Positions 12,331-42,594 are shown, counted from the first letter of the stretch. The stretch is 64,000 bases of DNA from Ignavibacteriota bacterium (GCA_963769605.1 CAVYML010000004.1:107312-171311); one strand, 5' to 3'. Translations and numbers: made by a program. Notes: a model not told the origin generated them from the letters alone.

Positions 12331-12421
12331 ACCTTTTTTATTCTCTTCTGTAGCCGACACCGGTGGTGTCGGATGTGCTTCCGCGGTCACCGTCCGTGGC
12401 TACCATGCAATGTCGTACTCT

Positions 12422-12480
12422 CTACGACGACCTCCCGATAATATTTAACAATATTCTCGGGACAAGCTGTCGCGGCTACA
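12422..12480 (-). repeat. 59-bp palindromic element, family R1 (reverse orientation)
   Basis: The reverse complement matches the copies at 29424, 30745, 30822 and 35796: TGTAGCCGCGAC..CCCGAGAATATTG.TAAATATTATCGGGAGGTCGTCG. Confidence 0.85.
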
Positions 12481-13167: not shown

Positions 13168-13249
13168 ATTTCAGATTGAAAATTGCAGATTTCCGTTTAT
13201 TGTCATTTTGTTATTGAGTTATAGAGTCGTTCTATTCGCATTTCACACT

Positions 13250-13675: not shown

Positions 13676-13730
13676 GACAATATAGATAAGTTTATAGCTA
13701 TAAGCAATTTAGCAGTAAATAGTAAAAAAA

Positions 13731-13840
13731 TTCTTAGTGTGTAGTTAGTGCGTAGTGCGGAGTTCGTGGTTCGTGGTTAAAGAACTAAGAACCAAAAACC
13801 AAGAACCAAGAACCAAGAACTACAAACTAAGAACTAAGAA
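13731..13840. repeat. Inverted heptamer arrays (ttcttag/tgtgtag... arm and gaactaa/gaaccaa... arm)
   Basis: Left arm 13731-13788, right arm 13789-13840. ttcttagtgtgtagtt is a near-complement of aactacaaactaagaa. Confidence 0.85.
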
Positions 13841-16560: not shown

Positions 16561-16580
16561 ATTCCAAATCCCATCCGTTA

Positions 16581-16686
16581 TCCTTCATCCTTCATCCTTC
16601 ATCCTTCCCCCCTCCTCCTATCATTCATCCTTCATCATTCATCCTTCATCCTTCATCATTCATCATTCATAATGTTTCATCCTTCT
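16581..16686. repeat. Heptamer array TCATCCT/TCATCAT inside the operon (minus-strand reading ATGAAGG/ATGAATG)
   Basis: Read directly. It fills the gap between the deacetylase stop (16677) and the GT2 start (16560). A CT-rich core (ccccctcctcc) lies in the middle. Confidence 0.85.
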
Positions 16687-20763: not shown

Positions 20764-20910
20764 TTGTAAACTGTGAATTGTGAACAGTAAACTGATGAAC
20801 TAAATAACCTAATAACTGACGAACTAAACAACGTTGCACCTCCGCACGGTAGCACCGCTGAATAGCAACACCTTTTTTGCAGTTCACAGTTCGCAGTTTT
20901 CAGTTTGCAG
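20764..20910. repeat. Inverted heptamer arrays (TGTAAAC/TGTGAAC arm and CAGTTCA/CAGTTCG arm) around a GC-rich core
   Basis: Left arm 20764-20832. Core gttgcacctccgcacggtagcaccgctgaatagcaacacc. Right arm 20879-20910. Located in the divergent promoter region between the GT2 operon and the M16 peptidase. Confidence 0.8.
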
Positions 20911-23631: not shown

Positions 23632-23702
23632 ATAGTTCTTAGTTCGTTGTTCTTAGTTCGTAGCTAAAAAGAACTACGCACCAAGCACTAAGCACTACGA
23701 AC
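23632..23702. repeat. Inverted heptamer arms forming a hairpin (tagttct tagttcg ... / gaactac gcaccaa gcactaa gcactac)
   Basis: Read directly. Loop ctaaaaa. Lies between the aminotransferase stop and the nuoG start. Confidence 0.8.
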
Positions 23703-25375: not shown

Positions 25376-25512
25376 ACTGTGAACTGTGAACGTAAACAGC
25401 AAACTGTGAACTGTAGCCGCGACGGGTCGTCGCGGAAGAATTTTCAATTGACAATTGCCGATTGAAAATTCTTAACCATTTACTATTCACCATTTACTAT
25501 TTACCATTCACC
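25373..25512. repeat. Composite repeat block: TGAACTG heptamers, a REP hairpin (25413-25435), CAATTGA heptamers and CCATTTA/CTATTCA heptamers
   Basis: Read directly. gtagccgcgacgggtcgtcgcgg is a perfect-stem palindrome. The ORF-track N-terminus of nuoH (25462-25518) is just the translated heptamer array. Confidence 0.85.
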
Positions 25513-25518
25513 GCATAT

Positions 25519-26545
25519 ATGATTATCATACTTTTAAAAATCTTTTTTATCGTTTTTTTCGTTCTTGTTCTTGGCGCTGCTCTTACAGTCTGGGCGGAAC
25601 GGAGAGTGAGTGCGATTATTCAAAACCGCATAGGCCCGAACCGTGTTGGGCTTTTCGGTTTGTTTCAGCCGTTTGCAGATGTTGTAAAGTTAACGATGAA
25701 AGAAGATATCGTTCCCCGGAATGCATACCGCTTCATTCATGATCTAGCGCCGCTTATTTCAATTACTGTAGCGCTGAGCACTTTTGCCATTATTCCTTTC
25801 GGCAATACCATCCTCATTTTCGGGCAGACAATTACACTTAATCATTGCGGATGTGGATATCGGAATTCTGTATGTGCTGGCGCTGACATCCATCGGTGTG
25901 TACGGCATCAGTCTGGCAGGCTGGTCGTCCAGCAGCAAATATTCGCTCTTAGGCGGAGTAAGGTCTTCGGCACAGCTTATAAGTTATGAGCTTTCAATGG
26001 GATTATCCATCATTGGCGTTTTGATGATCTCCGGATCTCTCCGGCTTCAGGATATCGTTTTAAAACAAACTGAATACCTATGGATATTGCCCAAATGGAA
26101 CATCTTATTGCAGCCGCTCGGGTTTATTACATTCTTTGTTGCCGCATTCGCAGAAACGAACCGATTACCATTCGATCTGCCGGAAGCAGAACCGGAACTT
26201 GTCGGCGGTTATAATACGGAATATACCGGAATGAAATTCGGACTATTTTTCCTGGCGGAATATGCAAACGTCATAACGTCGAGTGCTATAATTGCAACAT
26301 TATTTTTGGGCGGATGGAGCGTTCCCTATATTGAATATCTCAATATTTCGCCCTTTGCAGTCAGCCTTCTTCAGATTGCTGCATTCTTTGCAAAAGTAAT
26401 TCTCCTTGTGCTGTTTTTTATTATCGTCCGCTGGACGATTCCGAGATTCAAATATAACCAGCTCATGCAATTGGGATGGAAAGTGATGCTTCCAGTTGCA
26501 ATTATAAATTTATTGCTGACAGCGATGGTGCTTTTGTTTATGTGA
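25519..26545 (+). pseudogene. nuoH: NADH-quinone oxidoreductase subunit H, +1 frame disruption near 25837-25843
   Basis: Frame 1 gives MIIILL...WAERRVSAIIQNRIGPNRVG...[19 protein letters not shown]. Frame 2 continues [50 protein letters not shown]. Dropping one a from cttaatc restores TLIIADVD. Confidence 0.88.
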
Positions 26546-26549: not shown

Positions 26550-26645
26550 GAAGTTCGTAGTTCATAGTTCGTAGTGCGTGGTTCGTATTTTTGAATGCAA
26601 AGCTATGAACAAACTAAGAACCACGAACCACGAACGAAGAACTAA
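26550..26645. repeat. Inverted heptamer arms (gttcgta/gttcata... and gaaccac/gaacgaa...)
   Basis: Left arm 26550-26587, right arm 26603-26645. The ORF-track N-terminus of nuoI translates this repeat. Confidence 0.85.
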
Positions 26646-27171: not shown

Positions 27172-27269
27172 AGCAGTAAATGGTTAAGGATGAATAAGAG
27201 AATATTTTTTTGAGAACTTAAGAATATCAAGGGGATAAAGGGATGATAAACGAGAGACCGCACAAATAA

Positions 27270-27608
27270 TTGGAGGTATGGCAGAAAAGTATCGAATTCG
27301 TAAAATCGATATATGAACAAACGAGTAGACTACCAAGGGAAGAAGATTTCGGGCTAAGATCTCAAGTAAGAAGAGCTTCCGTTTCCATCCCATCAAATAT
27401 TGCAGAGGGATTGTTCAGATCATCGTATAAAGATAAAATCCACTTCTTAAACATAGCACAAGCCTCGATAAGTGAAGTAGACACTCAGATAGAGATATGC
27501 CGTACATTGGGTTATATCCCTGAAGAGAACTATATACAAATAGAGACAGACATGCTTCACCTGGCAAAATTACTATCTGGCTTAACACGAAAGCTGAAGG
27601 AATCATAG
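27270..27608 (+). CDS. Four-helix-bundle protein (23S rRNA intervening-sequence protein / Avd-like family)
   Basis: VWQKSIEFVKSIY...LRSQVRRASVSIPSNIAEG...ISEVDTQIEI is typical of this family. TTG start. Looks N-terminally short. Confidence 0.75.
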   Translation: MEVWQKSIEFVKSIYEQTSRLPREEDFGLRSQVRRASVSIPSNIAEGLFRSSYKDKIHFLNIAQASISEVDTQIEICRTLGYIPEENYIQIETDMLHLAKLLSGLTRKLKES

Positions 27609-27612
27609 GTTT

Positions 27613-27850
27613 CCATTCACCATTCACCATTCAATATTCACCATTTACCATTCACTATTCACCATTCACCATTCACCATTTACCATTCACCCTTTACCCT
27701 ATTAGGCTATTTGCAATTAAAAATAAAAGCATTACATTTCTCTCCACTACATTTGAGAGGGATAAAAAGCCTGAAAAATCTTTAAACCATTTACCATTTA
27801 CTATTCACCATTTACCATTGACTATTCACCATTTACCATTGACCATTCAC
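27613..27850. repeat. Largest heptamer block: CCATT[CT]A arrays 27613-27699 and 27786-27850 flanking about 85 nt of unique sequence
   Basis: ccattca ccattca ccattca atattca ccattta ccattca ctattca ... read directly. Immediately upstream of yifB. Confidence 0.9.
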
Positions 27851-27872: not shown

Positions 27873-29414
27873 ATGTTTTCAAAGATACAAAGTGCATCCA
27901 CCTTCGGTGTTCACGCCACTCAAGTTCAAGTAGAAACCCAGCTCGATCAGGGGCTGCCGAGATTTTTTATCGTGGGTCTGCCCGACAATGCTGTCAAAGA
28001 AAGCATGCATCGCGTTATTGCCGCTGTAAAGAATTCCGGTTTTAAATTTCCCAATAGACGCGTCACCATAAATCTCGCGCCGGCGGACGAAAAGAAAGAA
28101 GGATCGGCATACGATTTACCCATTGCGCTGGGAATACTTTTTTCCTCGGAGCAAATAAAATCTGCTGTCATGCAGGATTTCATCATTCTCGGAGAATTAG
28201 CCTTAGACGGCTCACTTCGTCCCGTCCATGGTTCATTAGTGATTGCATGTGAAGCAAAAAAATACGGAATACGAAAAATGATCGTCCCGGAAGAGAACGC
28301 TGCTGAAGCCGCAATGGTCGAGGGCGTTGAAGTTTATCCTGTACGAACATTGCGGGAATGCATAGACCTGCTTTCAGGCGAACATTCCATGCTCAGTCCG
28401 ATGAAGGTCAATTTAAAAGAAGTTTTCGAAAAAGAGCAAAGGTTCGCAACCGATTTTTCCGATGTCAAAGGGCAGGAAAGCGTTAAAAGAGCGCTGGAAG
28501 TTGCGGCTGCCGGAGGGCATAATGCATTGCTCATAGGTCCTCCCGGTTCCGGAAAAACTATGCTGGCAAAACGTCTTCCGAGTATTTTGCCTCCCATGAC
28601 GTTTGATGAGGCGCTGGAAACGACAAAGATACATTCCGTTGCAGGCATGCTGCCGCCGAATACTGCGCTTGTCGCAACGCGACCGTTCCGCTCTCCGCAT
28701 CATACTATTTCTGATTCCGCACTTGTTGGAGGCGGATCGATCCCGCGGCCGGGAGAAATATCGCTGGCGCATCATGGAGTCTTATTTCTTGACGAACTGC
28801 CTGAATTTGCGAGAAATGTTCTGGAGGTCATGCGTCAGCCGCTGGAGGACAGTAAGGTTACCGTCAGCAGGTCTAAAATGTCGATTGATTTTCCCGCGAA
28901 CTTCATGCTTGTATGCGCCATGAATCCATGTCCCTGCGGCAATTACGGCAATCCAAATCAGGAATGCACATGCAATATGAACCAGATACAAAAATATGTC
29001 GGCAAGATATCGGGACCGTTGTTGGACAGGATAGACATACATGTGGAAGTTCCCGCGGTAAAATACAATGAACTGGCATCGAAGAGGGAAGGTGAAACAT
29101 CGGAACAAATACGCCGCCGGGTTATCGAAGCAAGAGAAGTGCAATCCAGGCGATTTAAAGATATGCCGGGAATGTACAGCAATGCGGATATGCAGTCCAA
29201 CGATATAAAACAATTTTGCCGCATAGATTCCACAGGAGCGGAATTACTGAAAATGGCAATGGATAAATTAGGATTTTCTGCCCGTGCGTACGATCGGATA
29301 TTAAAAGTCAGCAGAACCATAGCCGATCTTGCCGGAAGCGAAAACATCCGTCCGGAGCACTTGAGCGAAGCCATACAATACAGAAGTCTCGATAGAAATT
29401 TTTATGTGATATAA
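27873..29414 (+). CDS. yifB: YifB/ComM-family Mg-chelatase-like AAA+ ATPase
   Basis: 513 aa with an N-terminal Lon-protease-like domain, Walker [20 protein letters not shown] and the zinc-ribbon-like [15 protein letters not shown]. Confidence 0.88.
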
Positions 29415-29423
29415 AAAGTGATT

Positions 29424-29555
29424 TGTAGCCGCGACAGCTGTCTCCGAGAATATTGCTAAATATTATCGGGAGGTCGTCTCGGATGATTATGATATCACAG
29501 CCCCGACACCACCCGCCTAATGCCTGCCGCAGCGGCAGGGCGGTGTCGGCTACAC
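29424..29555 (+). repeat. R1 palindromic element (29424-29482) plus R3 GC-rich hairpin module (29503-29555)
   Basis: tgtagccgcgacagctgtctccgagaatattgctaaatattatcgggaggtcgtctcgg, then ccgacaccacccgcc...ggcggtgtcgg. Confidence 0.85.
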
Positions 29556-29730
29556 TGGGGCGTTGCGGAAGGCCTTCATCTTCGATTTCGGCAAACTGGC
29601 GACATTCTTCATTATTTGATCGTTGCTGCTAAAATGCCTATATTTATTAATAATGGAACTGATCAGTGCGTTAAAAGTCTCTGCTAAACATTGGATCAGT
29701 GATATAAAGCAGACACAATATTATTATTTT

Positions 29731-30006
29731 ATGACAGAACAAAGCAAAGAAATAAAGCGGTTTATTAAAAACCACAGCAGTTTATTCTGGTATATAAAGG
29801 AAGATGCAAAGGAAAGCATAAGTATGGAGTTTTTGGTGGAAACCATATTAAATTATGGCGAGTTGAAGGATGTGAAAAAATTGCTGGCATTACTTGGAAC
29901 GAAAAGGACCGCTGAAATATTTTTCAAACAAACCCACAACAAGCGATGTAATTATTTTCCCAAAGTAAAATATTATTTTACTCTTTATTTTAATCGGCAT
30001 GCATAA
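29731..30006 (+). CDS. Small helical protein, putative antitoxin/partner of the downstream AbiEii-like nucleotidyltransferase (paralog of 32087-32470)
   Basis: Shares an N-terminal ..K.IFW.. segment and a helical G..K...LL core with the 32087 ORF. Overlaps the downstream gene by 8 nt. Start chosen at ATG 29731. Confidence 0.5.
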   Translation: MTEQSKEIKRFIKNHSSLFWYIKEDAKESISMEFLVETILNYGELKDVKKLLALLGTKRTAEIFFKQTHNKRCNYFPKVKYYFTLYFNRHA

Positions 30007-30619
30007 GGAAATATTGACTTCATCTCAAAATGAGTTGCTTCCTTTTGTGAAAATGTTCCGGAAGGATTTTTATTTAGTCGGCGGGACAGCTATCGCCTTG
30101 CAGATCGGACATCGCAGGTCGATTGATTTCGATCTATTCACAAATGCAGAATTTCTAAATATACAAAAAATAAAAGCCCGATATAAAGAAGCTCAGTTCC
30201 AGAGGAAACGGATTATCTACGAAGCATTCGATCAGCTCCATATAATGATCAATGACGTCAAAATTACTTTTTTCGCATTTCCATATCCTGTAAAGGCAAC
30301 AGTATCATTTGACTCTTTTTGTGTAATGCCTAACCTGTTGACACTTGCCGCGATGAAAGTTTATGCATTGGGGGGAAGAGCAAAGTGGAAAGATTACGTT
30401 GATCTATTCTATATTTTGAAATCTTATCACAGTCTTGATCAAGTATCCCGCAAGGCAGAAAAGGTTTTTCGGGAGATGTTTTCAGCCAAATTGCTCCTCC
30501 AGCAATTGTCATACTTTGAAGATATTGACTACTCAGAAGAAATTGAATTTATTAGACACGAAGTTCCCAAAGATGAAATTAAGAAATTCCTTATAAGTAT
30601 TGCAACAGAAAGAATCTGA
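29999..30619 (+). CDS. AbiEii/AbiGii-family nucleotidyltransferase toxin-like protein
   Basis: FYLVGGTAIALQIGHRRSIDFDLF is the G-x-n-D-x-D NTase signature typical of the AbiEii family. Confidence 0.65.
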   Translation: MHKEILTSSQNELLPFVKMFRKDFYLVGGTAIALQIGHRRSIDFDLFTNAEFLNIQKIKARYKEAQFQRKRIIYEAFDQLHIMINDVKITFFAFPYPVKATVSFDSFCVMPNLLTLAAMKVYALGGRAKWKDYVDLFYILKSYHSLDQVSRKAEKVFREMFSAKLLLQQLSYFEDIDYSEEIEFIRHEVPKDEIKKFLISIATERI

Positions 30620-30744
30620 TTTGATCTGATTGTGAAAGGAATTTATTTTGTTACGATGGGATATTATTCGGCTATATCCAACTCCAAATCAAAAACTATC
30701 TTAAATCACAATTCAGCATCTTCTTGATCTGCTGTCTAATATTT

Positions 30745-31075
30745 TGTATCCGCAACAACTTGTCCCGAAAATATTGTTAAATATTATCGGTAGGTCGTCA
30801 CAGAGAGCACCAATATGACTTTGTAGCCGCAACAGCTTCTCCCGAGAATATTGCTAAATATTATCGGGAGGTCGTCGCGGAAGGCACTGACACCACCCGC
30901 CTGAATGACTGTGTCAACAGTCGGGCAGGCCGATGTCGGATACAGAGGGCAATCGTGGGAGGACACTAACATAACCTTGTAGTCACGACGGTAATTGCCC
31001 ATCGAAAACATCCGCAACGAACCGTCGCGGCTACAGAAACGAACCAATTAAGAGTTCACAGTTCGCAGTCAAAGA
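30745..31075 (+). repeat. Repeat cluster: two tandem R1 elements (30745-30803, 30822-30880), an R3 module (30887-30945), an interrupted REP hairpin (about 30970-31038) and CAGTTCA heptamers
   Basis: Read directly. Its 3' part, gctacagaaacgaaccaattaagag, recurs at 35898-35922. Confidence 0.85.
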
Positions 31076-31141
31076 TTTTAGCCACATTGAACGTTTCCGC
31101 AAAAATATTTATATTTACATTAATATTTTATTTATTATCCG

Positions 31142-31582
31142 GTGGACAGCAAAGAGAAAATGGTTTTCACATATATACAAAAACGCGAGATAGAAGCTCG
31201 TCTTGTAGAGTTTGGAAAAAGTCATGAAGAGATTCTTGCATTGTATATCTTTGGCTCTTTTTTGACTTCCCGTGCACCTGAAGATATCGATATTGCTCTG
31301 CTTTTACACTCAGAACCCGACAACGATGTTTTCAAAACACGGGCAAGATTTTCTCAATCTCTCTTTGGATATACTGCAATAGATGATATCGATTTACTCT
31401 TTTTACAAACTGCAGATCCAATCATCCGAATGCAGGTGCTTCGACACGGGAAACTTCTTTTTTCACACGATGAACGATATCTTCAACAATTCATCATACA
31501 AACGCTCGGCGCTTACTATGACCTCAAGCAAATCAGAAAGCCGATAGAACAAGCTATTTTAAATGGGAGAATTTATGCTTGA
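31142..31582 (+). CDS. mntA: MntA-type minimal nucleotidyltransferase (type VII antitoxin)
   Basis: LYIFGSFLTSRAPEDIDIALLL is the GS-x-n-DxD motif. Overlaps the downstream HepT gene. Alternative ATG at 31160. Confidence 0.75.
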   Translation: MDSKEKMVFTYIQKREIEARLVEFGKSHEEILALYIFGSFLTSRAPEDIDIALLLHSEPDNDVFKTRARFSQSLFGYTAIDDIDLLFLQTADPIIRMQVLRHGKLLFSHDERYLQQFIIQTLGAYYDLKQIRKPIEQAILNGRIYA

Positions 31583-32003
31583 TACCGATGTCGTGTACGG
31601 AAAAGTTGACATTATCCAGCGCTGTTTACGGCGGATTAAAGACGTGACCGGATTAAATCCCACGTTATTGGAAGATATCGACAAGCAGGATATTTTTGTT
31701 CTAAATTTACAACGCGCTATACAGGCCGTCTTGGATCTTGCGGCTCATGTTATCGCTGCAGGCGGACTTGGATTGCCAAGAGATTTAAAAGAGCAATTTC
31801 ACATTCTCCATGCCAAGGGAATTATCACAGAAGATCTATCCCTGCATCTGGAACAAATGGCGGGATTCAGAAATATAGCCATGCATGAATACCAAATCAT
31901 CAATCTTGATATTTTGAAGAAAATACTTCAGGAACGTTTACCAGATCTGGAAGCATTCTATACGGTGATTATAACTTACTACCGATTGGACAAAGAAGGA
32001 TAA
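31563..32003 (+). CDS. hepT: HepT-type (DUF86) RNase toxin
   Basis: Carries the R-x4-H-x-Y motif (FRNIAMHEY). 146 aa. Paired with MntA. Confidence 0.78.
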   Translation: MGEFMLDTDVVYGKVDIIQRCLRRIKDVTGLNPTLLEDIDKQDIFVLNLQRAIQAVLDLAAHVIAAGGLGLPRDLKEQFHILHAKGIITEDLSLHLEQMAGFRNIAMHEYQIINLDILKKILQERLPDLEAFYTVIITYYRLDKEG

Positions 32004-32009
32004 GAACTA

Positions 32010-32078
32010 TTTACAGTTCACAGTTTACAGTTTACAGTTATCAGTTTACGGTTCACAGTTTACAGTTCACAGTTTACC
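32010..32078. repeat. Heptamer array CAGTT[CT]A, about 10 units
   Basis: cagttca cagttta cagttta cagttat cagttta cggttca cagttta cagttca cagttta, read directly. Confidence 0.9.
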
Positions 32079-32086
32079 GCTCTTAG

Positions 32087-32470
32087 ATGACCACTGAAGA
32101 AAAACAAAATACATTAAAAAAAATATTCTGGGATTACTCTTTTTCCGGACATGAACTGTATTCAATTCATGAAAAGAAAAAAGATACGGAATCTATTACG
32201 CAAGAAAAAATATTTATAAGAATGTTGGAACGACTCGGATGGCATGCTGTTCTCGATATTCTCGGGGTCGAAAAAGTAAAATTATTATTGAAAAAAGAAA
32301 CTATCGCCAATATACGCCAGAAAGAATTGCGTGAACGGTATGAATTCATACAAAAAATATTATTCGAAGAAACTGTATTCTTTACAGGATGGGGTGATGA
32401 GTATTATCAAAGAATTAAACACACCCTTTTTTCTAACCGGTGGTACTGCTCTAAGCAGGCATTACTTTAA
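32087..32470 (+). CDS. Small helical protein, putative partner of the AbiEii-like NTase (paralog of 29731-30006)
   Basis: LKKIFWDYSF... resembles the 29731 ORF. The 3' end overlaps the NTase ORF by about 140 nt, so the true stop is uncertain. Confidence 0.45.
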   Translation: MTTEEKQNTLKKIFWDYSFSGHELYSIHEKKKDTESITQEKIFIRMLERLGWHAVLDILGVEKVKLLLKKETIANIRQKELRERYEFIQKILFEETVFFTGWGDEYYQRIKHTLFSNRWYCSKQALL

Positions 32471-33049
32471 CCACCGCTACTCAGATGATCTTGATCTCTT
32501 CGTTATCTCTGATCCGGAATTTCAGGATTGGATTGAAAGAGTGTTGGAGGGTTTATATGAAGCCGAAAATGGAACGAATTCGTGATGGAACGACAGACGA
32601 TAAGAAGATTAAAAGATTTTGTTCAAATATTTGTACATTTGCCTGAAGAACAAACAAACAGCTTGAAAATTGATTTTGTGAATGATGTTGCCGCGCATTA
32701 TGGTTCTTTTGAAGAGCATGAGCGTCTTGGAAGAATCGATAGCTGGAGGAATATTTTATCGAATAACATAAGCGCGTTGTTCCGTTTTGAACCGAAAGAT
32801 ATTGTCGATATCTGGATGCTGTCAAAGAAGAGAGCATTCCAATGGCAAACGATTCTTGAAGAAGCAAAAAGCAAAGAAGCCGGTGTTAAGCCGGAAATTA
32901 TCTATAATATTCTAAGGTCTTTTCCTGGCGAAAAATTAGATAGCATTCGATGGATCCGGAAACCGGAGTATGTCAGAGTAAAAAGCGACATAGAAACGAT
33001 TGCTGACGATCTTTTCTATGGAAGAGAAAATTCGTTGGTAGAAAAATAA
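32331..33049 (+). pseudogene. AbiEii-like nucleotidyltransferase, disrupted (ORFs 32331-32585 frame 3 and 32582-33049 frame 2)
   Basis: The N-terminal part has FFLTGGTALSRHYFNHRYSDDLDLF. The rest of the domain continues in another frame. The frames overlap only at 32561-32585. Confidence 0.65.
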
Positions 33050-33176
33050 TTGTAGTCCCATGAGATTTATGACGTCACCCTGCCCGACATGTTTCACCTT
33101 GTGGCAGTCGGTGTCAACTACAATACCAAACAATGAACCGCCGCATTTCCGCACCGCTGCACGGCAACACCTTTAA

Positions 33177-33216
33177 CTATTTACCATTCACCATTCTATT
33201 CACTGATTTACAATCA
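33177..33216. repeat. Degenerate CCATTCA-type heptamers
   Basis: aactatt taccatt caccatt ctattca ctgattt, read directly. Confidence 0.6.
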
Positions 33217-33389
33217 TCGATTGGATTGTTTTTTGGCGAGATAGGTCAAAAGGACCAGATGCCTGGAATTTTTTTGACTTTTTTGTGAATCTCACGACAA
33301 AAAAGAGTACCTTTACCATGTAAATAGTAATTGATTCGATTTAAAATTCCGAGCGTATGCACAACCTACCAACGGAATTAATTTTTTAT

Positions 33390-33599
33390 ATGAAAAAGAC
33401 AATAAGAATCATAAAACAATCTGACGAACCGGCAGCGGATGCGGAGTATTGGAGAAGCAAGACTTCCGATGAGCGCATAAGCACGGTGCAGATTTTGCGA
33501 GAGCAATATATTACGCTGTTCCATAAGGAACGAGAGTATCGTGAAAGTAGAAAAGGATTACGAAGATTTTATTCGGTTGTTAAACTCTCAGAGCGTTGA
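33390..33599 (+). CDS. Small protein upstream of an NTase-fold gene (putative antitoxin/partner)
   Basis: About 69 aa from ATG 33390. Overlaps the downstream gene. Its position is analogous to 35228-35458. Confidence 0.4.
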   Translation: MKKTIRIIKQSDEPAADAEYWRSKTSDERISTVQILREQYITLFHKEREYRESRKGLRRFYSVVKLSER

Positions 33600-34014
33600 G
33601 TACCTGCTTGTCGGAGCGTATGCGGTGGCACACTATGCCGAACCGCGCAATACGGGCGATATAGATTTCTTGATAAATCCGACAAATAAAAATGCGAAAA
33701 AGGTGCTGGCTGTACTGAAGAAATTCGGTTTTGAGAAGCTCGATATTTCAGAGAATGATCTTCTCAATCCTGATATGGTGATTCAATTGGGATTTCCCCC
33801 CGTACGAATAGATTTGATCACTTCATTGGGTACGGCGAACTTCAAAGACATGTACAAAAAGAAATCAATGATCAGAATGGGAAAAGAAAACACAAACGTT
33901 ATATCATACGAACATCTTATTACTTCGAAGAAAGCAGCAGGACGGCCAAAAGACAAATCCGATCTGGCGGCGCTCAAAAGATCGAGAGGAATACATTCAA
34001 AAGCTGTGAGGTAG
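33541..34014 (+). CDS. Nucleotidyltransferase-fold protein of uncharacterised family
   Basis: LLVGAYAVAHYAEPRNTGDIDFLI is a G-x12-DxD signature. C-terminal ...GRPKDKSDLAAL. GTG start. Confidence 0.5.
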   Translation: MKVEKDYEDFIRLLNSQSVEYLLVGAYAVAHYAEPRNTGDIDFLINPTNKNAKKVLAVLKKFGFEKLDISENDLLNPDMVIQLGFPPVRIDLITSLGTANFKDMYKKKSMIRMGKENTNVISYEHLITSKKAAGRPKDKSDLAALKRSRGIHSKAVR

Positions 34015-34078
34015 GATAAGTCGATAGAAGGAATCATAATAATGAACTGAACATTGAACGTCGAACGGCAACACTGCA

Positions 34079-34113
34079 GCCTGCCCGATTGTTCACACAG
34101 TCATTCAGGCGGG
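34079..34113 (-). repeat. R3 module, reverse orientation
   Basis: gcctgcccgattgttcacacagtcattcaggcggg is a near-exact reverse complement of 30897-30931. Confidence 0.8.
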
Positions 34114-34126
34114 CACCTTTAACCAC

Positions 34127-34300
34127 GCACTAAGAACTTCATTCATCCGCAATAAACTGTTTTTTAATTGGCAATTGACAATTTGCAATTCGCGATTTCC
34201 CCACCGTTCACCATTTACTGTCTACAATTTTTCAATTCGCAATTTTCTCCTCCATTCACTATCCACTGATTTATAAACCTCCGCACCTCAGCACTGCAGC
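34127..34300. repeat. Mosaic of degenerate heptamers (CAATTG[AC], CCATTTA, CCATTCA types)
   Basis: aattggcaattgacaatttgcaattcgcgatttcc ... gttcaccatttactg ... ttcaattcgcaatttt ... ccattcactatccactg. Confidence 0.65.
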
Positions 34301-34352
34301 ACGTTGCGTCGTTGAACCTTATTCCATTCACACCTTGCAATTTTTGAACATT

Positions 34353-34376
34353 TAGTATATATTAAATAGTATATAT
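34353..34376 (+). promoter_or_regulatory. Direct repeat TAGTATATAT x2 (14-bp spacing), putative vapBC operator/promoter
   Basis: Copies at 34353-34362 and 34367-34376, ending 12 nt before the vapB ATG. ttgcaa at 34336 is -35-like. Confidence 0.4.
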
Positions 34377-34388
34377 AAATAGGATACT

Positions 34389-34619
34389 ATGCAAACCGTA
34401 AAAATTATTAAAAATGGCGGCAGCCAGGCTATCCGGTTACCTCGATTATACCGGATTAAAGGGAAAGAAGCGTATGTCAAAAGGGTGCCGGAAGGGATTT
34501 TAGTGATAGAAAAAAATGATCTCTGGACAGCGTTTGAAAAGTGCCTGGAAGATTTTCCTCCGGATTTTCTCAAAAAAAGAAGAAAGCCTATAAATCACAA
34601 AAGACGGATTTTTGAATGA
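34389..34619 (+). CDS. vapB: AbrB/SpoVT-fold antitoxin VapB
   Basis: MQTVKIIKNGGSQAIRLP is the swapped-hairpin AbrB motif. 4-nt overlap with vapC. Confidence 0.8.
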   Translation: MQTVKIIKNGGSQAIRLPRLYRIKGKEAYVKRVPEGILVIEKNDLWTAFEKCLEDFPPDFLKKRRKPINHKRRIFE

Positions 34620-35014
34620 TATATTTGCTCGATACTGATATTTGCTCATATATCATTCGCAAACGACCCCGAAACCTTATTGATAAGTTTAAAAGTATTC
34701 CTCTTGGGGAAATTGGACTTTCTGTAGTGACAATATGTGAATTTGAATCGGGAATTCCAGGCAGTTCTCATCCGGAGAAGCTAAGGTCAGCAATCAATGC
34801 ATTTCTATCACCATTTAGTATTATTGACTTCCAACAAACCAACGCTGTTTCATTCGGAATTATTGATTCCTACCTGCACGCTAAAGGAACACAGATTGGG
34901 GATATGGATACAATGATTGCTTCCCAAGCTCTTTCCCGTGGACTAATATTAGTGACCAATAATATTAAGCATTATTCGCGAGTACCCCATTTAAAATATG
35001 AATCGTGGAAATAA
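34616..35014 (+). CDS. vapC: PIN-domain toxin VapC
   Basis: MIYLLDTDICSYI (first acidic PIN residue), later GDMDTMIASQAL and LVTNN. Confidence 0.85.
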   Translation: MIYLLDTDICSYIIRKRPRNLIDKFKSIPLGEIGLSVVTICEFESGIPGSSHPEKLRSAINAFLSPFSIIDFQQTNAVSFGIIDSYLHAKGTQIGDMDTMIASQALSRGLILVTNNIKHYSRVPHLKYESWK

Positions 35015-35048
35015 ACAGTTGTCAGTTCACAGATATCAAGATAACCTT

Positions 35049-35192
35049 GTAGCCGCAACGGTTCGTCGCGGAAGGGATGACTGAATATTGAACCTCGAAC
35101 GGCAGCACTTCCGCACTTTATCAGAGCCATTCACCATTCACCATTCAATTTACCATTTACAGTTCACAGTTTTTAACCACATTGAACGTTTC
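35049..35192. repeat. REP hairpin (35049-35071), TGAAC-type units, CCATTCA/CAGTTCA heptamers and the shared CCACATTGAACGTTTC box (35177-35192)
   Basis: Read directly. The 16-nt box also occurs at 31082-31097, upstream of mntA. Confidence 0.8.
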
Positions 35193-35227
35193 TACGAAAT
35201 TGCATATATTCCTATCAATATCAATCT

Positions 35228-35458
35228 ATGGTCAGGCAAACAGAAGAGACCGCAGAGGAAATGGAAACACAAACGGATCAATACCAAAGAGAAGTCTACC
35301 GCGCTATGACGCCGCAGCAGAAATATGAAGTGATGCAATCACTTATCGATTCGGCACGGACAATGAAATACGCCTATTTCCGCTCGATACATTCTGATTG
35401 GACTGACCAACAAATACAACAAGCATTGTGCGAATGGTTTCTGTATGCCCGCTCTTGA
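35228..35458 (+). CDS. Small protein upstream of an NTase-fold gene (putative antitoxin/partner)
   Basis: 76 aa, acidic N-terminus. Overlaps the downstream ORF by 14 nt. Confidence 0.4.
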   Translation: MVRQTEETAEEMETQTDQYQREVYRAMTPQQKYEVMQSLIDSARTMKYAYFRSIHSDWTDQQIQQALCEWFLYARS

Positions 35459-35786
35459 TCTTATTTCAATCTTTATCATTCCGCTTAATTGCACAGGAAT
35501 AGATTATATGGTAACCGGGTCAGTTGCACCGATGTTGTATGGCGAGCCGCGCATGACGCACGATATCGATTTGATCGTGGATCTGCATACGGAGCGTATT
35601 CCAGCTCTGCTGAATGCTTTTCCGGAAACAGAATACTATCGTCCGCCGGAGGAAATTATCGGCGTCGAAATTGCCAGAGTGCAGCGAGGGCATTTCATTA
35701 TTATTCATCATGCAACAGTATACAAAGCGGATGTTTCCCGAGGTCATCCGCGACCACCGGTCGCGGCTACAGAAAGATGGTCGTAA
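35445..35786 (+). pseudogene. NTase-fold protein, C-terminally truncated by a REP element
   Basis: YMVTGSVAPMLYGEPRMTHDIDLIV signature. From about 35745 the ORF reads through ccgcgaccaccggtcgcggctac, giving the nonsense tail RGHPRPPVAATERWS. Confidence 0.5.
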
Positions 35787-35935
35787 GCGCCCCTATGTTA
35801 TCCGCAACAGGCTTGTCCCGAGAATATTGCCAATTATTATAGGGAGGTTGTCGCGGAAAGACACCGACATAACCTTGTAGCCGCAACGGGTCGTCGCGGC
35901 TACAGAAACAAACCAATTAAGAGGTCATAGTTTAC
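35748..35935 (+). repeat. Repeat cluster: REP (35748-35770), R1 (35796-35856), REP (35877-35903) and the conserved tail gctacagaaacaaaccaattaagag
   Basis: Read directly. It marks the distal edge of the TA array. Confidence 0.85.
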
Positions 35936-36123
35936 AATTCTCAGTTCCGACTAAGCACCATCTTTTATCCTTGAATTTTTCTCAAAAAATTGCTAACTTA
36001 TTATGATTATTTTGATAATATTGTTGGAATATCGTTCTATCATATATTTTGACTCAACTAAGCAGACGCAGGGTTGAAAATATTCGATTTTCTTAAATAG
36101 GGCACAATTAGAAAGTGATTACC

Positions 36124-39004
36124 ATGTTAAAGCGCGTATACCCATATTCACCGGAAATTTTAAAAATTTTAGGCAAAAAAGTAATTTTTTTTGCAAAAAT
36201 ATGCATTTCCGGGTTTATGATCACTTTCCTAATGAATGGGCTTCTCATCGCTCCGGCATATTCGCAGAGCGCCGCCCAGGTCGAAGAAGCAAAAGCAAAA
36301 CTCGGTACAATGACTCCGGATGAAATCCAGGCTGCAGTTGCAAAATATGGAATGACAATGGATGAAGCCGAAGCCAAAGCGAGCTCCGTCGGAATCGATT
36401 TGCAGAGTTATCTTAAAGGGCGTGCTGCTGATTCAACACCTGCAGCGCCGCCGCAAACACAGGTCAACATACAACTTACACCCAATTCAAATGGTGTCAC
36501 AGGCCAACCTGGCGCCGCAGCGCCTGGTATTCAGACCCCTGGCCTTCCAATGAATGATACCTCACACAATATCGGTCCAGCAACTCTCATTACGAAGCCT
36601 ACAGTTCCCGCTATAGATACATCGAAAGCGACGAAAGAGGCAGCACCTATATTAGGACCCGGCGGTATTCCATATTTTGGTTATAATCTTTTTAAAGGAC
36701 GCACATCAGATTTTGATAATAATCCTAATCTGACAGACAATTCCTATATCATCGGAAAAGGGGATGTTCTCCGTATTTCACTTTGGGGAGATACTCAAAG
36801 CATGAATGATTATACGGTAGATGATGAGGGAAGAATTGTCATGCAGCCGGTAGGCGCAATACTTGTTGCAGGATATACACTCGATCAGGCAAAAAAAATG
36901 GTTCTTCATACGCTTGCCCGATCAATTGCCGGGCTTACTGGAAGACCTCCAACGACTATGCTGGATCTAACCATCTCCCGATTACGTCCTTTGCATGCTT
37001 ACGTCATGGGAGAAGTGGCTAATCCCGGCGCTTATTCCATGAATCCTTTTTCAACTGTGTTCAATGCGCTCTTTACTGTGGGCGGTCCGCTTATTCAAGG
37101 CGGAATGAGAGAAATCCGACTTGTACGGAACGGTAAAACCGCAGTAAAAGTCGATTTATATGATTATTTGATCGGAACAGAAAAGACAAACGATATCCGA
37201 ATAAATGAAAACGATATGATATTTGTCCCATTGCGCGGAAGAACAGTGGGCATCAGGGGCGCCGTACCTCGTTCTGCCTATTATGAACTTCTTCCAAATG
37301 AAAATTTAAGGCGATTATTAGAATTTTCCGGAGGGGATTCGCAATACATTTTATCTTCAAAGAATTCAAATAGATCGAATTGTTCCATTTGCGGAACGTA
37401 AGCCCGGTGAACTCGAAAGACAAATCTTCGATATCGATTTTACAGATATTTTACTCCACAACAAAGATTATAAATTAGAAGATGGGGATATTGTTACAAT
37501 CTATCCCATTCAGGATGAAAAAGAAAATTATGTGCAAATAGGCGGCGCCGTTTGGAGACCGGGTACATATCAGCTCGAGAAAGTTCCAAGAATCAAGGAT
37601 CTTATTCAAGAAGCGGATAGTTTAGATCCGGAAGCATACCTGGATCGCGCTAAATTGGTACGAACGTATGAAGATAAGCGTACGGATGTATTTTATATCG
37701 ATCTCAATCGGGCGATGGCAGGTGATACACTTAATAACTTAGAATTAGAATCCTGGGATAGTTTGTATGTTTATACCTGGCAGGAAATCCTTGCTAACAC
37801 CGATAGTGTTAGAGTCGAGGGAATAGCAAAACATCCCGGCACATATCCACTTTATGGGAATTTTACGTTGTATAATTTGGTCAAAGATGCCGTAGGATTA
37901 TCCGATACACTTTTCAGGCAGCAAATTTATCTGCAGCGAGCTGATTTGGTACGTTTGAACAAAGATCGCTACACTTCCCGTATTATTACATTTAATCTCT
38001 GGGATCTTTATCAGGATCATTTTAAAGATACAATTCTCTTACCGGGAGATCGTATTATCATCTATCCGATCAATGCCGTCCAATTTACGGATAGATATGT
38101 CGATATTGGCGGGAGTGTAAAAACACCGGGCAGGTATAAATTGGCAGAGAATATGACGGTGCTTGATCTCTTGATTGAAGCAGGAGGGTACACAGAAGAC
38201 GCATCTGCAGATCAGGCGGAAGTCTCCAGAATTGAACGAAGCGGAATTGGCCGTGATTCATTAACAAGAATTCTATATGTTCCCATACCCGATTTTTTCG
38301 ATCCGAATACTCTCTCTCAAGAAAAAGTCGTCCAATATCGCGCAACAAGCTTCAAGCTGCAGCATCGCGACCAGGTTTTTGTTAGACCGGATCCAAAATA
38401 TATTTTCCAGAAAAACGTAACAATTTTTGGAGAAGTAAATCATCCGGGAACTTATGTGTTGAGCAAATTGAACGAACATCTATCGGATATTATCAGACGT
38501 GCAGGTGGAATAAAAAATGGAGGATACGCAGAGGGGGGGAAGGTTGTTCGCGGTGGGATGAGAATGAGAATCAATGTTCGTTATGCATTAGAGGATCCGG
38601 AAGGTGACGACGATATTATTGTGCAAGCAAATGATACCCTTACGATTCCAAAAGAACCCTCTGCTGTGTTGGTATCCGGAGAAGTCAATAATCCGGGTTT
38701 ATTTTCCTATGTTGACGGCAACTCCGCATCATACTACATTAAAGGATCGGGTGGCGTCACAGACAGTGCGGATTTTATATTGATTACTTTTCCAACGGGA
38801 ATTAGCAAGCAAGTAGGAACGCACTGGTGGTCTTCAAACCCGAAAATACCGGATGGATCGAGTATCTTTGTAGCAAAGGAAAAACCGGAACCACCTGAGA
38901 TCGTACCCAAAGATAAGCAGACAACGACGTTCGATTTTGTAAAAGACATGCTGGCAATAGTTGTCTCGTCTGTAACAATTATAGTACTTGCAGCTAAATT
39001 ATAG
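36124..39004 (+). pseudogene. wza: Large polysaccharide export protein (Wza/Poly_export plus multiple SLBB domains), +1 frame disruption at G4 run 37333-37336
   Basis: ORF 36115-37401 carries the Poly_export motif (YIIGKGDVLRISLWGD...DDEGRIVMQPVG). After LLEFSGG the sequence continues in frame 2 (IRNTFYLQRIQIDRIVPF...EDGDIVTIYP...) into ORF 37532-39004. That ORF has repeated SLBB-like V.I.G.V..PG.Y units and a C-terminal TM helix. Confidence 0.8.
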
Positions 39005-39063
39005 AAGATTGATCCATCATATTTTAAAATCTGAAATATATATTGTACTACTGATCTAATATT

Positions 39064-39086
39064 GTAGCCGCGACCGTTGGTCGCGG
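39064..39086. repeat. REP hairpin (gtagccgcgaccgttggtcgcgg)
   Basis: Same family as 25413, 35049 and 35877. This is the last copy in the window. Confidence 0.8.
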
Positions 39087-39250: not shown

Positions 39251-39553
39251 ATGCAGCAACGTACTATGAGACTTAAAGAAAACATGAGAGACTTTTTCGC
39301 TCGTTATGTAAAAGAAAAATTTCCGGGTGCTAAAGTATATTTATTCGGTTCCAGGATAGATGACAATGCAAAAGGTGGAGATATAGATATCCTGATTATT
39401 TCAAACGAAAAATTAAGTTTTATGGACATCTCCCAAATGCGAATACGTTTTTATAAAATGTTTGGTGAACAAAAAGTAGACATTGTAAATTTTGCATACA
39501 ATGAAGAGGATCCTTTTAAGAATATTGCTTTAAACAATGCGATAGAGTTATGA
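39251..39553 (+). CDS. Minimal nucleotidyltransferase (MNT-like), apparently orphan
   Basis: VYLFGSRIDDNAKGGDIDILII motif. A 44-codon ORF (39550-39681) follows with an ATGA overlap, and reading frames then break down. Confidence 0.65.
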   Translation: MQQRTMRLKENMRDFFARYVKEKFPGAKVYLFGSRIDDNAKGGDIDILIISNEKLSFMDISQMRIRFYKMFGEQKVDIVNFAYNEEDPFKNIALNNAIEL

Positions 39554-41053: not shown

Positions 41054-42594
41054 GTAACTGCTCAGCGTAATTGAGGAACCGGAGACAAAGGATTTCCTGC
41101 AAAGATGCTTGAAAGAGCAGAGAGAATATTGACACCTTGTTTTTTCATTGTGGAAATGTATCCACGAATGCGACAATAAGAGAGCGCACCATGATGACTA
41201 CGGAAGGTGCCGGATATCTTATGTTTAACTTTCACCATGCGCAAGTCTCGTTCGGCCAGATTGTTTGTAAATGGCACCGTTGGATCAAAGAGAAATGCCA
41301 ATACCTCATCACGGTGCTCGTGAAGACGATTCAAGAGATTTCTGGTTTTCGATTGTTTGACTCTTCCGCGTTTGTGCGGAGACCCTCGATTGAGACGGTT
41401 CAGACGAAATCCGGATTGTAAAAGAGTATCATAACGGTGAACCGAACGTGTAACAAAGTTCTTTGATATAGGTTTTGTCTGGATCTTCTCTTTGATGTGG
41501 AATAACAGATCGATCAGTTTCTGAGCCCAGGCTTGATGATAGTCCTCATAAACAGAGCGTAATTCCCTCACAATATGGGCATTACAATACGCATGAGTCA
41601 AGTGGTCGTAGCGTGCGTAGGATTCCCAGAAATCGTGGATGATTCTTCCTGTGGTTTTAGGAAGGATACCGATTTTATCCATTGCTTCTTTTCCGCGCTT
41701 GGAGTCAATGCCATAATGCGTATAGATATCGGTAGAAGCAGTATGGATCCAGTGTAATTTGTTCTCGCAGAACATCCCGGTCTCATCAACATGCAGAATC
41801 GGAGCTTGCTGCAACTGTTCTTTGATCTGTTCTTCAGTTTGTGCCAGATGTCGATAGGCTTCTGCAATCCAGTTCTTGAGTGTGCCTTCGGAGAGTGCGC
41901 ATCCAAAGATGTCTTGCAAAAACTCTGTTGTTCTCTCAAAAGGAATGATCTGGTGTTGCATCATATATAGAACGATACTCTTGATAGTAGAACCGAATTG
42001 TGTTGCTTTGGTGATATCCTGAGGAAATATGCCGGATGTCTTCGTATGACAACACGGGCATTGTTTCACCTCGGAACGATGTTCTGTGACTTCCATCTTC
42101 ACCTCCGGAAGATCGAAGACTTGACGGGTCTGAACAGCTTGGACGGGAACGTGTTCTAACGAAGAACCACAACCGATGCAGGTACGGGCAGGATGAATAA
42201 CAACATGATCGATGTTAGTAGACTTTCGCAAGGTTGTTCCCGGGTGGCCTGTTTGACCGCCTGTCGGACGTTGTTTTTTGTTCTTTACTGTGCCACTTTG
42301 TATATTGCGTCTATACCCATCACTGAAAGGAGATTTATGGCTGTTCTGACTATTTTTGTTAAGTGCGATTTCCAATTCGATGACTCGTGCGTCTAACTTG
42401 TCTATTCGATCAAGAAGCAGCAAGATAAGATCTGCTGCCGCTTCCGGTTGAGTTTTGCAGAGATGTATTAATCCTTCTCGTGTGTATTTTTGCTTTTCCA
42501 TACACACAAGATATAAAGTGATTTCTAAAAGTACAAGCCCTAACTCTATATTTATTGAATATATTTTATCTCACATTTTTCGCTGAGCAGTTAC
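41054..42594 (-). mobile_element. IS66-family insertion sequence (single-ORF type) with 14-bp terminal inverted repeats and an 8-bp target duplication
   Basis: Ends are GTAACTGCTCAGCG (41054-41067) and CGCTGAGCAGTTAC (42581-42594). The direct repeat GTTATTTC sits at 41046-41053 and 42595-42602. Confidence 0.9.
41062..42507 (-). CDS. IS66-family transposase
   Basis: N-terminal leucine zipper, zinc-finger region (CIGCGS...CPCCHT), HVDETG, CNAHIVRE and PFTNNLAERDLR. Confidence 0.88.
   Translation of the reverse strand: MCMEKQKYTREGLIHLCKTQPEAAADLILLLLDRIDKLDARVIELEIALNKNSQNSHKSPFSDGYRRNIQSGTVKNKKQRPTGGQTGHPGTTLRKSTNIDHVVIHPARTCIGCGSSLEHVPVQAVQTRQVFDLPEVKMEVTEHRSEVKQCPCCHTKTSGIFPQDITKATQFGSTIKSIVLYMMQHQIIPFERTTEFLQDIFGCALSEGTLKNWIAEAYRHLAQTEEQIKEQLQQAPILHVDETGMFCENKLHWIHTASTDIYTHYGIDSKRGKEAMDKIGILPKTTGRIIHDFWESYARYDHLTHAYCNAHIVRELRSVYEDYHQAWAQKLIDLLFHIKEKIQTKPISKNFVTRSVHRYDTLLQSGFRLNRLNRGSPHKRGRVKQSKTRNLLNRLHEHRDEVLAFLFDPTVPFTNNLAERDLRMVKVKHKISGTFRSHHGALSYCRIRGYISTMKKQGVNILSALSSIFAGNPLSPVPQLR

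Follow-up and report, generated by a model that had tools for sequence, protein, structure and literature searches.

A probable strain-variable island of toxin-antitoxin-type operons between yifB and wza in a REP-rich Ignavibacteria-like genome

Gene content of the yifB-wza interval

The window in this report is the whole 64,000-nucleotide stretch of DNA that was analyzed, from an assembled genome of an Ignavibacteriota bacterium (GCA_963769605.1, contig CAVYML010000004.1, positions 107312 to 171311), and all coordinates are counted from its first letter. Our subject is the interval between the core gene yifB and a wza-type polysaccharide exporter gene. An earlier note, made from the sequence alone, had described there six co-directional two-gene modules of toxin-antitoxin (TA) type separated by structured repeats, and the open reading frame (ORF) listing and profile searches bear out the modules and their positions (Table 1). 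The interval is probably a strain-variable island of autonomous TA-type operons, in a genome rich in repetitive extragenic palindromic (REP) sequences and belonging to an uncultured Ignavibacteria/Bacteroidota-like host.

The two genes of a module overlap by 4 to 59 nt. Recognized toxin-type domains are AbiEii (twice), HepT, PIN, and a DUF2204-type nucleotidyltransferase (NTase; twice, the second truncated). Among the partner proteins, MntA is recognized as an antitoxin through its Polbeta domain, and the VapB and Rv0078B-like matches fall below the cut-offs. Judged by these domains, the modules appear to be addiction or abortive-infection units in which the AbiEii- and DUF2204-type NTases, HepT, and VapC are candidate toxins, the DUF2204-type proteins being putative toxins only. 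Pfam, NCBIfam, and PADLOC give no match for the module 1 small ORF, and Pfam and NCBIfam place those of modules 3 and 4 in no family; the small ORF of module 3 bears no detectable relationship to that of module 1. The module 1 small ORF stands alone downstream of wza in two of the related loci described below (L086 and L087), with 86 to 88% amino acid identity.

Two of the modules had been thought damaged and one protein novel. The NTase-fold protein of module 4 in fact belongs to the DUF2204 family. Module 6 is truncated as proposed: beyond 35736 it no longer matches the L086 version of 187 aa, a reverse-oriented REP provides its final ~14 codons and the stop codon, and the truncation is structural rather than an assembly indel, an example of how REP activity can damage a module. 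The AbiEii gene of module 3 is indeed read as two frames, but the frameshift may be an assembly error, as infB, nuoH, and wza are also split. In the window infB occupies two ORFs (805-2487 and 2453-3508), nuoH (25376-26545) is without its 5' part, and wza, compared with L086, is split by an extra G within a G-run (GGGG, ~37340-37360); these frameshifts are probably long-read assembly indel errors. Because such errors are likely in the assemblies of both the window and its closest relative, L081, pseudogene calls here are weakened.

Sites resembling sigma-70 promoters lie 20 to 50 nt upstream of modules 1, 2, 5, and 6, so that the description of the cassettes as promoter-poor does not suit four of the six. 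The total in the sigma-70 scan is not above that in shuffled sequence (28 versus 21±5), and only the positions of sites relative to start codons are used here. Modules 2 and 6, otherwise unrelated (MntA/HepT versus Rv0078B-like/NTase), share a leader of ~60 to 110 nt, with a near-consensus promoter-like site, that may be a propagated promoter segment; its motif CCACATTGAACGTTTC is confined within the window to the two leaders (31069-31126 and 35164-35221) and is also present at orthologous places in relatives. The direct repeat upstream of vapB probably fits an autoregulated vapBC operon. Canonical terminator-like sites number 3 in the island, compared to 5.4 expected.

The GC content of the island is ~39%, compared to ~45% for the core genes to the left and 25 to 37% for the exopolysaccharide (EPS) locus on the right side. 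The plus strand carries every gene between 21006 and 40912, a range extending well beyond the island, and the shared orientation of the modules is therefore not specific to the island. No integrase gene, transposase gene, or tRNA is visible inside the island or at its edges; Rfam and tRNA scans of the 64-kb window gave no match, hence no tRNA or known-RNA anchor. An exact look-up of the YifB and HepT proteins of the window returned no record.

Table 1. Modules, repeats, and flanking genes in and around the yifB-wza interval
Feature	Position	Strand	Evidence or remark
R1-containing REP-A/REP-B dimer outside the island, between nucleoside phosphorylase and thymidine kinase genes	12349..12480	-	z = -5.4
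Short-loop REP-A between nuoG and nuoH, amid heptamer arrays	25412..25435	+	Motif search, fold
yifB/comM-type Mg-chelatase-like AAA ATPase, left core anchor	27873..29414	+	Pfam Mg_chelatase, ChlI, Mg_chelatase_C; dS 0.84 versus L086
Head-out REP heterodimer: REP-A TGTAG+CCGCGAC… with nested 35-nt hairpin (R1), REP-B with extended loop (R3)	29424..29554	+	Closing stem TGTAGCCG/CGGCTACA, z = -3.4
Module 1 small ORF, 91 aa, putative antitoxin	29731..30006	+	ORF listing
Module 1 AbiEii-type NTase, 206 aa	29999..30619	+	Pfam AbiEii 1e-11; PADLOC AbiEii
Degenerate R1 in tandem (77-nt spacing) with second REP-A/REP-B dimer at 30822-30946	30743..30946	+	z = -3.95; R1 copies at 30743 and 30820
Short-loop REP-A, reverse	31012..31035	-	Repeat and motif searches
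Leader common to modules 2 and 6, promoter-like TTGAAC-17-TATATT	31069..31126	+	Repeat search, promoter scan, motif search
Module 2 MntA-type minimal NTase	31142-31582	+	Pfam Polbeta 4.9e-15; ORF overlaps hepT
Module 2 HepT HEPN RNase	31563-32003	+	Pfam HepT-like 1.3e-26
Heptamer array TTTACAG ×9.7, sole repeat at junction 2/3	32010..32077	+	TRF; 58 nt longer in L081
Module 3 small ORF, 127 aa	32087-32470	+	ORF listing
Module 3 AbiEii, two frames	32331-32585 and 32582-33049	+	First half Pfam AbiEii 5.6e-10; second half weak PADLOC AbiEii
Degenerate head-out REP element TTGTAGTCC…CAACTACA	33052..33124	+	Sequence; weak fold, z = -2.2
Module 4 small ORF, 69 aa	33390-33599	+	ORF listing
Module 4 DUF2204-type NTase	33541-34014	+	Pfam DUF2204 8.8e-7; kept in L086-L089, dS 0.10-0.15
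Fragment like REP-B extended loop, inverted copy of 30896-30930	34079..34113	+	94% complementary; no significant fold alone
13-nt direct repeat over promoter-like site upstream of vapB, probable operator	34353..34386	+	TRF, promoter scan; L086 homology begins here
Module 5 VapB	34389-34619	+	NCBIfam VapB 2.3e-20, below curated equivalog cut-off
Module 5 VapC PIN RNase	34616-35014	+	Pfam PIN 1.2e-8
Short-loop REP-A	35048..35071	+	Repeat and motif searches
Module 6 copy of the shared leader (TTGAAC-17-TATATT), preceded by heptamers at 35127-35166	35164..35221	+	Repeat, TRF, promoter, and motif searches
Module 6 Rv0078B-like small ORF	35228-35458	+	Match below Pfam cut-off
Module 6 truncated NTase	35445-35786	+	Related to module 4 NTase, E 2e-9
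Right-edge REP cluster	35748..35904		REP-A(-) 35748-35771; R1 with degenerate head 35796-35858; fully palindromic REP-A 35876-35904
wza-type polysaccharide exporter, right anchor	36115..39004	+	Pfam Poly_export/SLBB; intact 960 aa in L086
Short-loop REP-A 3' of wza, MntA-type NTase gene 39251-39553 next	39063..39086	+	Motif search, fold

Variation among related strains

Relatives were found by searching a large protein collection with YifB, and they fall at ~100, 97, 94, 91, and 78% identity. The nearest named YifB matches (71 to 75%) are Ignavibacteria, Bacteroidota, and Kryptonium metagenome-assembled genomes. The comparison of YifB with representative genomes was of no use for synteny, with a best match of 72% (on a short contig), the rest at ≤64%, and a single REP-head match in 2 of 80 loci.

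Locus L081 (YifB ~100%) has the same six modules after yifB. In L082 (97%; 11543-15714) a REP cluster and ~0.9 kb of DNA separate yifB from katG, and beyond katG the final 325 nt of yifB are found a second time, ahead of a REP and the beginning of module 1; the position of katG between yifB and the duplicated 3' end is a signature of homologous, Campbell-type integration. Among the loci at 94% identity, L086-L089 carry modules 6, 4, and 5 in that order ahead of an intact wza (960 aa), which is followed by a REP cluster and, from module 1, by the small ORF alone; L092 has a DUF6629 gene. The loci at 91% (L083-L085) have EPS genes and heptamer arrays with no REPs, and those at 78% (L094 and L095) have dus-polX and no repeats. 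Wherever YifB identity is 94% or more, the yifB stop codon is immediately followed by a REP cluster, whose internal make-up differs greatly between strains. The six modules are thus not kept in a fixed order, a possibility raised in the earlier note; relatives vary in their presence or absence as well as in their order (6-4-5 versus 4-5-6), and some have no TA modules after yifB. The further expectation that gain and loss would fall exactly at repeat boundaries is borne out in part: gain, loss, and reordering are all seen, but the homology breakpoints lie at no fixed repeat site.

Synonymous divergence (dS, Nei-Gojobori) between the window and L086 is 0.84 to 0.98 for nuoG, nuoI, and yifB, compared to 0.10 to 0.28 for modules 4, 5, and 6, where dN/dS is 0.17 to 0.29; it is 0.45 for the module 1 small ORF and 0.37 for the C-terminal half of wza. 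Since the dS of the modules is far below that of the core and their order is altered, the modules would be functional genes of more recent shared ancestry that have been rearranged. The dN/dS values suggest that the genes of modules 4 to 6 are still under purifying selection. Their cassette-like behavior is thus real. The island would be a textbook-style accessory stack of addiction and abortive-infection operons, exchanged far more recently than the core diverged.

The window and L081 are 100% identical from 33008 to at least 36200, with flanks at ~95 to 96%. Scattered substitutions occur over modules 1 to 3, and L081 differs further in having no nested 35-nt hairpin in its first REP (a 35-nt indel), a shorter R1 repeat region, which lacks 63 nt at 30821 relative to the two tandem 77-nt copies of the window and is less similar over 30800-31000, and 58 nt of extra heptamers. 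A structural deletion of 393 nt in module 3 (32627-33019), with microhomology only at its ends, is common to L081 and L216, a locus found through an identical VapC that gives a third sample with the order M1b-M2-M3Δ-M4-M5-M6. The breakpoints of L216 were not used, since it is a probable chimera: its left 1.8 kb is high-GC DNA (1-1805, joined inside AbiEii), and at its right end the sequence switches, exactly after a REP hairpin, to unrelated small ORFs (7113-8248). This contig was probably misassembled at hairpin-forming repeats.

A gene between nuoI and yifB (27270-27608), encoding a four-helix bundle of the type found in 23S rRNA intervening sequences (23S-rRNA-IVS type), also behaves like a cassette. 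Its dS versus L086 is 0.15, with neighbors at 0.84 to 0.98, and the low-divergence tract (27172-27625) is edged by heptamer arrays. In L091 (3893-4865) and L093 it is replaced, except for the last ~38 nt, by a DUF559 endonuclease-type gene that brings its own flanking palindromes, AAATCCCCCTGCAAAAAG…CCCCCTTTGCAAAGGGGGATT.

REP hairpins and heptamer arrays

The palindromes distinguished earlier as R1, R2, and R3 all belong to a single family of GTAG-tagged REP hairpins, with a 7-bp stem next to the GTAG head and loops that range from 5 to 40 nt. REP-A, formerly R2, consists of TGTAG and, next to it, the stem-loop CCGCRAC-N5-GTYGCGG; copies matching the consensus are at 25413, 31012(-), 35049, 35748(-), 35877, and 39064, and long-loop versions are at 29425 and 30823. 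R1 is a REP-A that has a further hairpin of 35 nt nested within the loop. REP-B is a second stem variant, CCGACAC…GTGTCGG, which ends in …GGTGTCGG+CTACA, and R3 is its extended loop. REP-A and REP-B usually form a head-out heterodimer, TGTAGCCG…CGGCTACA, as at 29424-29554, 30822-30946, and 12349-12480(-). These elements fold as single-stranded DNA with a TGTAG/CTACA closing stem, at z-scores of -3.2 to -5.4 versus shuffles (REP-A/REP-B elements, -3.5 to -4.7). The window has ~13 to 15 REP heads over 7 to 8 separate intergenic sites, including clusters at 30743-31035 and 35748-35904, and head-out dimers are also seen in L081, L082, L086, L090-L092, and low-GC metagenome loci. The inner hairpins of the REP loops (CCCGGGAATATTGTTAAATATTATCG…, CCCGGAAACATCGAAGATGTTTT…) are found tandemly duplicated, and also free of complete REPs (L090 7560-7800 and L092 2370-2640); they may be separate nested mini-elements.

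GTAG-tagged REPs, REP dimers, bacterial interspersed mosaic elements (BIMEs), and REP doublets forming hairpins (REPINs) have been described (PMC3733652, Di Nocera et al. 2013; PMC2817692, Nunvar 2010; PMC3337134, Bertels and Rainey), and a survey in 2013 placed GTAG REPs only in Proteobacteria, Cyanobacteria, Chloroflexi, and the Planctomycetes-Verrucomicrobia-Chlamydiae group (PMC3733652). The present elements share with them an unpaired GTAG beside a GC-rich 7-bp stem-loop, varied loops, head-out heterodimers, and tandem clusters (PMC3733652), as well as an extragenic location near stop codons, sometimes supplying the stop (module 6), and a strain-variable copy number. They differ from the surveyed GTAG REPs in the nested 35-nt hairpin of some REP-A loops, which can be duplicated (L090 and L092), and in their Ignavibacteria/Bacteroidota-like host. 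Unlike in known REP systems, no REP-associated tyrosine transposase (RAYT) was found for this lineage in the window and the related low-GC loci.

Heptamer arrays are found in most of the longer gaps between genes from 4.6 to 28 kb (beside truB/ribF, aroA/bshC, tdk, cdd, glycosyltransferase genes, nuoG/H/I, and yifB) and make up 21% of the intergenic DNA in positions 1-29414, compared to 5% in the island. Their units are varied (GAACTAA, CATCCTT ×14, CCATTCA ×11, ACCATTT, and CAGTTTA), and the arrays, spread over 4620-36000 with examples at 9728-9837, 13734-13844, 16572-16670, 23633-23697, 26552-26642, 27613-27691, and 27786-27850, are often in inverted pairs able to form long hairpins; the low-GC EPS locus on the right has none. 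Heptamer repeats of the TAACTGA type are known from Beggiatoaceae, cyanobacteria, and a few Bacteroidetes (PMC4679880). Like these and the short tandemly repeated repetitive sequences of cyanobacteria (PMC4679880), the arrays are intergenic tandems of 7-nt units, often before starts or after stops and of strain-variable copy number; unlike them, they have many different units here and are often inverted pairs. These findings extend the known range of GTAG-type REP dimers and of abundant heptamer arrays to an uncultured lineage of Ignavibacteria/Bacteroidota-like type. An octamer-like motif, GCAGCACTTCCGCAC / CGGCAACAC, recurs immediately 5' of heptamer arrays at several junctions, both within the island (33135-33165, 34062-34080, 34277-34302, and 35096-35114) and outside it (20840-20880), and also in L086.

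The view that R1, R2, and R3 occupy every junction holds for several junctions only: 2/3 (32004-32086) has heptamers alone, and 3/4 and 4/5 have degenerate or fragmentary REP pieces. Similarly, R1 copies do lie at both proposed edges (29422-29498 and 35796-35858), but a further MntA-type NTase gene beyond wza (39251-39553) blurs the right one, and that edge is therefore not absolute. As to whether the repeats are equally dense near non-TA genes, heptamers are at least as dense there, and REP clusters are enriched in the island, where REP heads per intergenic kilobase are ~4-fold denser, yet not specific to it; ordinary genes also have REPs beside them (12349-12480, 25412 among the nuo genes, and 39063). 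REPs and heptamer arrays thus appear to be general intergenic fillers of the lineage that turn over faster than point substitution. REP clusters might accumulate in the island because insertion is harmless there, in much non-essential same-strand intergenic space, and they probably double as 3' hairpins of RNA, or insulators, between same-strand autoregulated operons.

A scan of metagenomes with the REP-A core pattern returned 120 contigs, of which ~95 are unrelated high-GC taxa, so that the core is identical across very different organisms, and ~25 are usable low-GC loci. The 25 low-GC contigs have REP-A/REP-B dimers and heptamers, and their 49 REP-flanking ORFs are mostly housekeeping genes (Iso_dh, fumarase, Lon, TilS, ATP synthase epsilon, and GidA), with a few NTase, HEPN-like, or RhuM genes. 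A low-GC contig, L183 (1-2430), carries on one strand a REP-A, an NTase_sub_bind (HEPN-like) gene with a minimal nucleotidyltransferase (MNT) gene, heptamers and a REP-A/REP-B dimer, HicB and HicA, and a REP-B. In a high-GC contig (L155, 63% GC, 840-1460), a 164-aa ORF with an HUH motif matches Pfam Y1_Tnp above the cut-off and has TGTAG-hairpin-hairpin-CTACA dimers with the REP-A core on both sides; this core thus belongs to a RAYT-type REP in at least one further taxon, and the locus is a textbook REPtron. No Y1 transposase occurs among the ~60 ORFs of the window, nor was one found in the low-GC loci by tblastn with a RAYT-like query, which served as a lead only; the identity of the L155 gene rests on Pfam Y1_Tnp. 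A RAYT-type enzyme would presumably spread the REPs here too.

Movement of the modules

Homology between the window and L086 ends at different places in different modules. For module 5 it runs from the -10/operator region to one base beyond the stop codon, for module 4 it is lost inside the 3' end, and for module 1 it begins 13 nt ahead of the start and stops 17 nt inside the AbiEii gene. The spacer between modules 4 and 5 is wholly different in the two strains, while both flanking modules are ~93% identical; repeat turnover therefore outpaces substitution, and the ends of homology blocks are not crossover points. Ends of blastn blocks were rejected as recombination breakpoints for this reason, since spacers turn over between adjacent retained modules. 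Nor do REP clusters follow the modules: L086 has a cluster at 4/5 and none at 6/4, and in the window the situation is reversed or there are fragments only, as at 4/5. The repeats might mediate the accretion of modules, a possibility raised in the earlier note.

We consider it likely that the TA island is exchanged horizontally and sits in a recombination hotspot, and that general or illegitimate recombination is at work there rather than a site-specific system of the integron type. Modules would be gained, lost, reordered, and truncated, and exchanged between diverged strains, by recombination of incoming or duplicated DNA in a permissive region, with the dispersed repeats and shared leaders perhaps serving as short patches of homology. 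The island resembles TA and defense islands in chromosomal hotspots, in that unrelated two-gene modules (AbiE-like, MntA/HepT, VapBC, and NTase pairs) lie between conserved anchors beside an EPS locus, with a GC content below that of the core, some copies decayed, and modules horizontally exchanged. It differs from the usual ones in having no visible mobile-element genes or tRNA and in the unusual density of REP clusters and heptamers at its junctions. Expansions of MNT/HEPN and VapBC systems are found in Chlorobi and cyanobacteria. Clustered type II TA loci were reportedly surveyed by Makarova et al. in 2009.

An array of small co-directional, TA-rich cassettes, with imperfect palindromes of 60 to 130 nt between them and a content and order that vary among strains, recalls integrons and clusters of attC sites lacking an integrase (CALINs), which the earlier note had proposed as the architecture while seeing neither an integrase nor RYYYAAC/GTTRRRY core sites. 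The palindromes of such a sedentary chromosomal remnant would be divergent attC sites, with the integrase elsewhere in the genome. Both absences stand, however: a core-motif search of 29401-36000 found no attC-like R''/R' pair (shuffle mean, 0.08), with 5 occurrences of GTTRRRY versus 5.3±2.4 expected and 2 of RYYYAAC versus 6.2±2.3, and there is no tyrosine or serine recombinase among the ~60 ORFs scanned in the window, where the only transposases are IS66-type and IS1-type in the EPS locus, and no integrase among the genes called within the ±10-kb flanks of the relatives. The palindromes are moreover GTAG-headed, face both ways (31024-, 35760-, and 35893- versus 29425+, 30823+, and 35049+), number from 0 to 4 per junction, with none at 2/3, and lie between housekeeping genes as well; unlike integron cassettes, the modules have promoter-like sites, ahead of four of them, and the repeats do not move with them. 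We reject an integron or CALIN identity on these grounds, namely attC sites, a single orientation, one repeat per cassette, confinement to the array, and IntI (in the 64 kb and the relatives' flanks), and we regard even a CALIN remnant with divergent attC sites as extremely improbable. It is also rather unlikely that the modules have no mobility of their own and that the whole yifB-wza interval is swapped as one allele through homologous recombination between core genes, as capsule loci are, with decay accounting for the internal changes. The border with the low-GC EPS locus, the tract identical in the window and L081 between more diverged flanks, the duplicated yifB 3' segment around katG in L082, as homologous integration predicts, and the microhomology-only ends of the module 3 deletion all agree with such a swap. 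Yet yifB has a dS of 0.84 up to its stop codon, and the 23S-rRNA-IVS-type gene upstream and modules 4 to 6 downstream have ~0.15, so there must be at least two separate low-divergence tracts; furthermore, the orders 6-4-5 and 4-5-6 and the module 1 small ORF beyond wza need rearrangement within the array.

The modules might, alternatively, be REP-bounded cassettes moved by a RAYT/IS200-type HUH transposase or by precise recombination of REP dimers, a circle being excised and then reinserted at another REP. The hairpins would be counterparts of the left and right ends in IS200/IS605 elements, in an integrase-independent analog of the integron. Several findings weigh here against general or illegitimate recombination. 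Of the 7 island junctions, 4 have a REP cluster, whereas among the 29 junctions of comparable length in the rest of the window only 3 do (p≈0.016); L183 is a second array, in which REP dimers separate MNT/HEPN-like from HicAB modules; and 4-5-6 and 6-4-5 are cyclic permutations, which circle excision and reinsertion would explain neatly, with module 6 standing first after the REP cluster in L086. No breakpoint resolves to a single nucleotide, and we infer the mechanism from data that comprise, for this genome, the 64-kb window plus short related contigs, some of them error-prone or possibly chimeric. Given the REP enrichment and the L183 array, REPs and TA cassettes may be functionally linked. 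The low dS of the modules relative to flanking genes, the REP-A core on both sides of the Y1_Tnp gene in L155, and the cleavage and rejoining of REP DNA by the Escherichia coli RAYT in vitro (as cited in PMC3733652) also favor REP-bounded movement. However, no Y1 transposase is found in the window, the ±10-kb flanks of relatives, or the low-GC loci, REP clusters do not travel with modules at the 4/5 and 6/4 junctions, homology ends at gene edges or inside genes and at no constant REP position, junction 2/3 is without a REP, and most of the sampled REPs flank ordinary genes. We therefore hold movement by an HUH transposase or REP-dimer recombination, and hairpins acting as IS200/IS605-like ends, to be quite unlikely. 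There is similarly only a slim chance that REP dimers, together with heptamer and leader segments, are the portable joints of an integrase-independent cassette system that reshuffles same-strand TA arrays, as in yifB-wza and L183. If the enrichment at TA junctions were mechanistic, REPs and REPINs would assemble gene cassettes and provide a second, integron-independent route to arrays; a functional analog of the integron would then be built from REPINs, through single-strand cleavage and joining of the RAYT type or through dimer recombination. Such a role, if true, would bear on the biological role of REPs and REPINs, which is still debated.

Flanking EPS locus

The EPS locus to the right of the island (39 to 64 kb; GC, 25 to 37%) is itself laterally acquired or mosaic. 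It includes an IS66-family transposase, an IS1-like DDE transposase, and a helix-turn-helix plus ImmA/IrrE (M78) protein, encoded at 41062-42507(-), 51818-52714(-), and 52795-53889(-).

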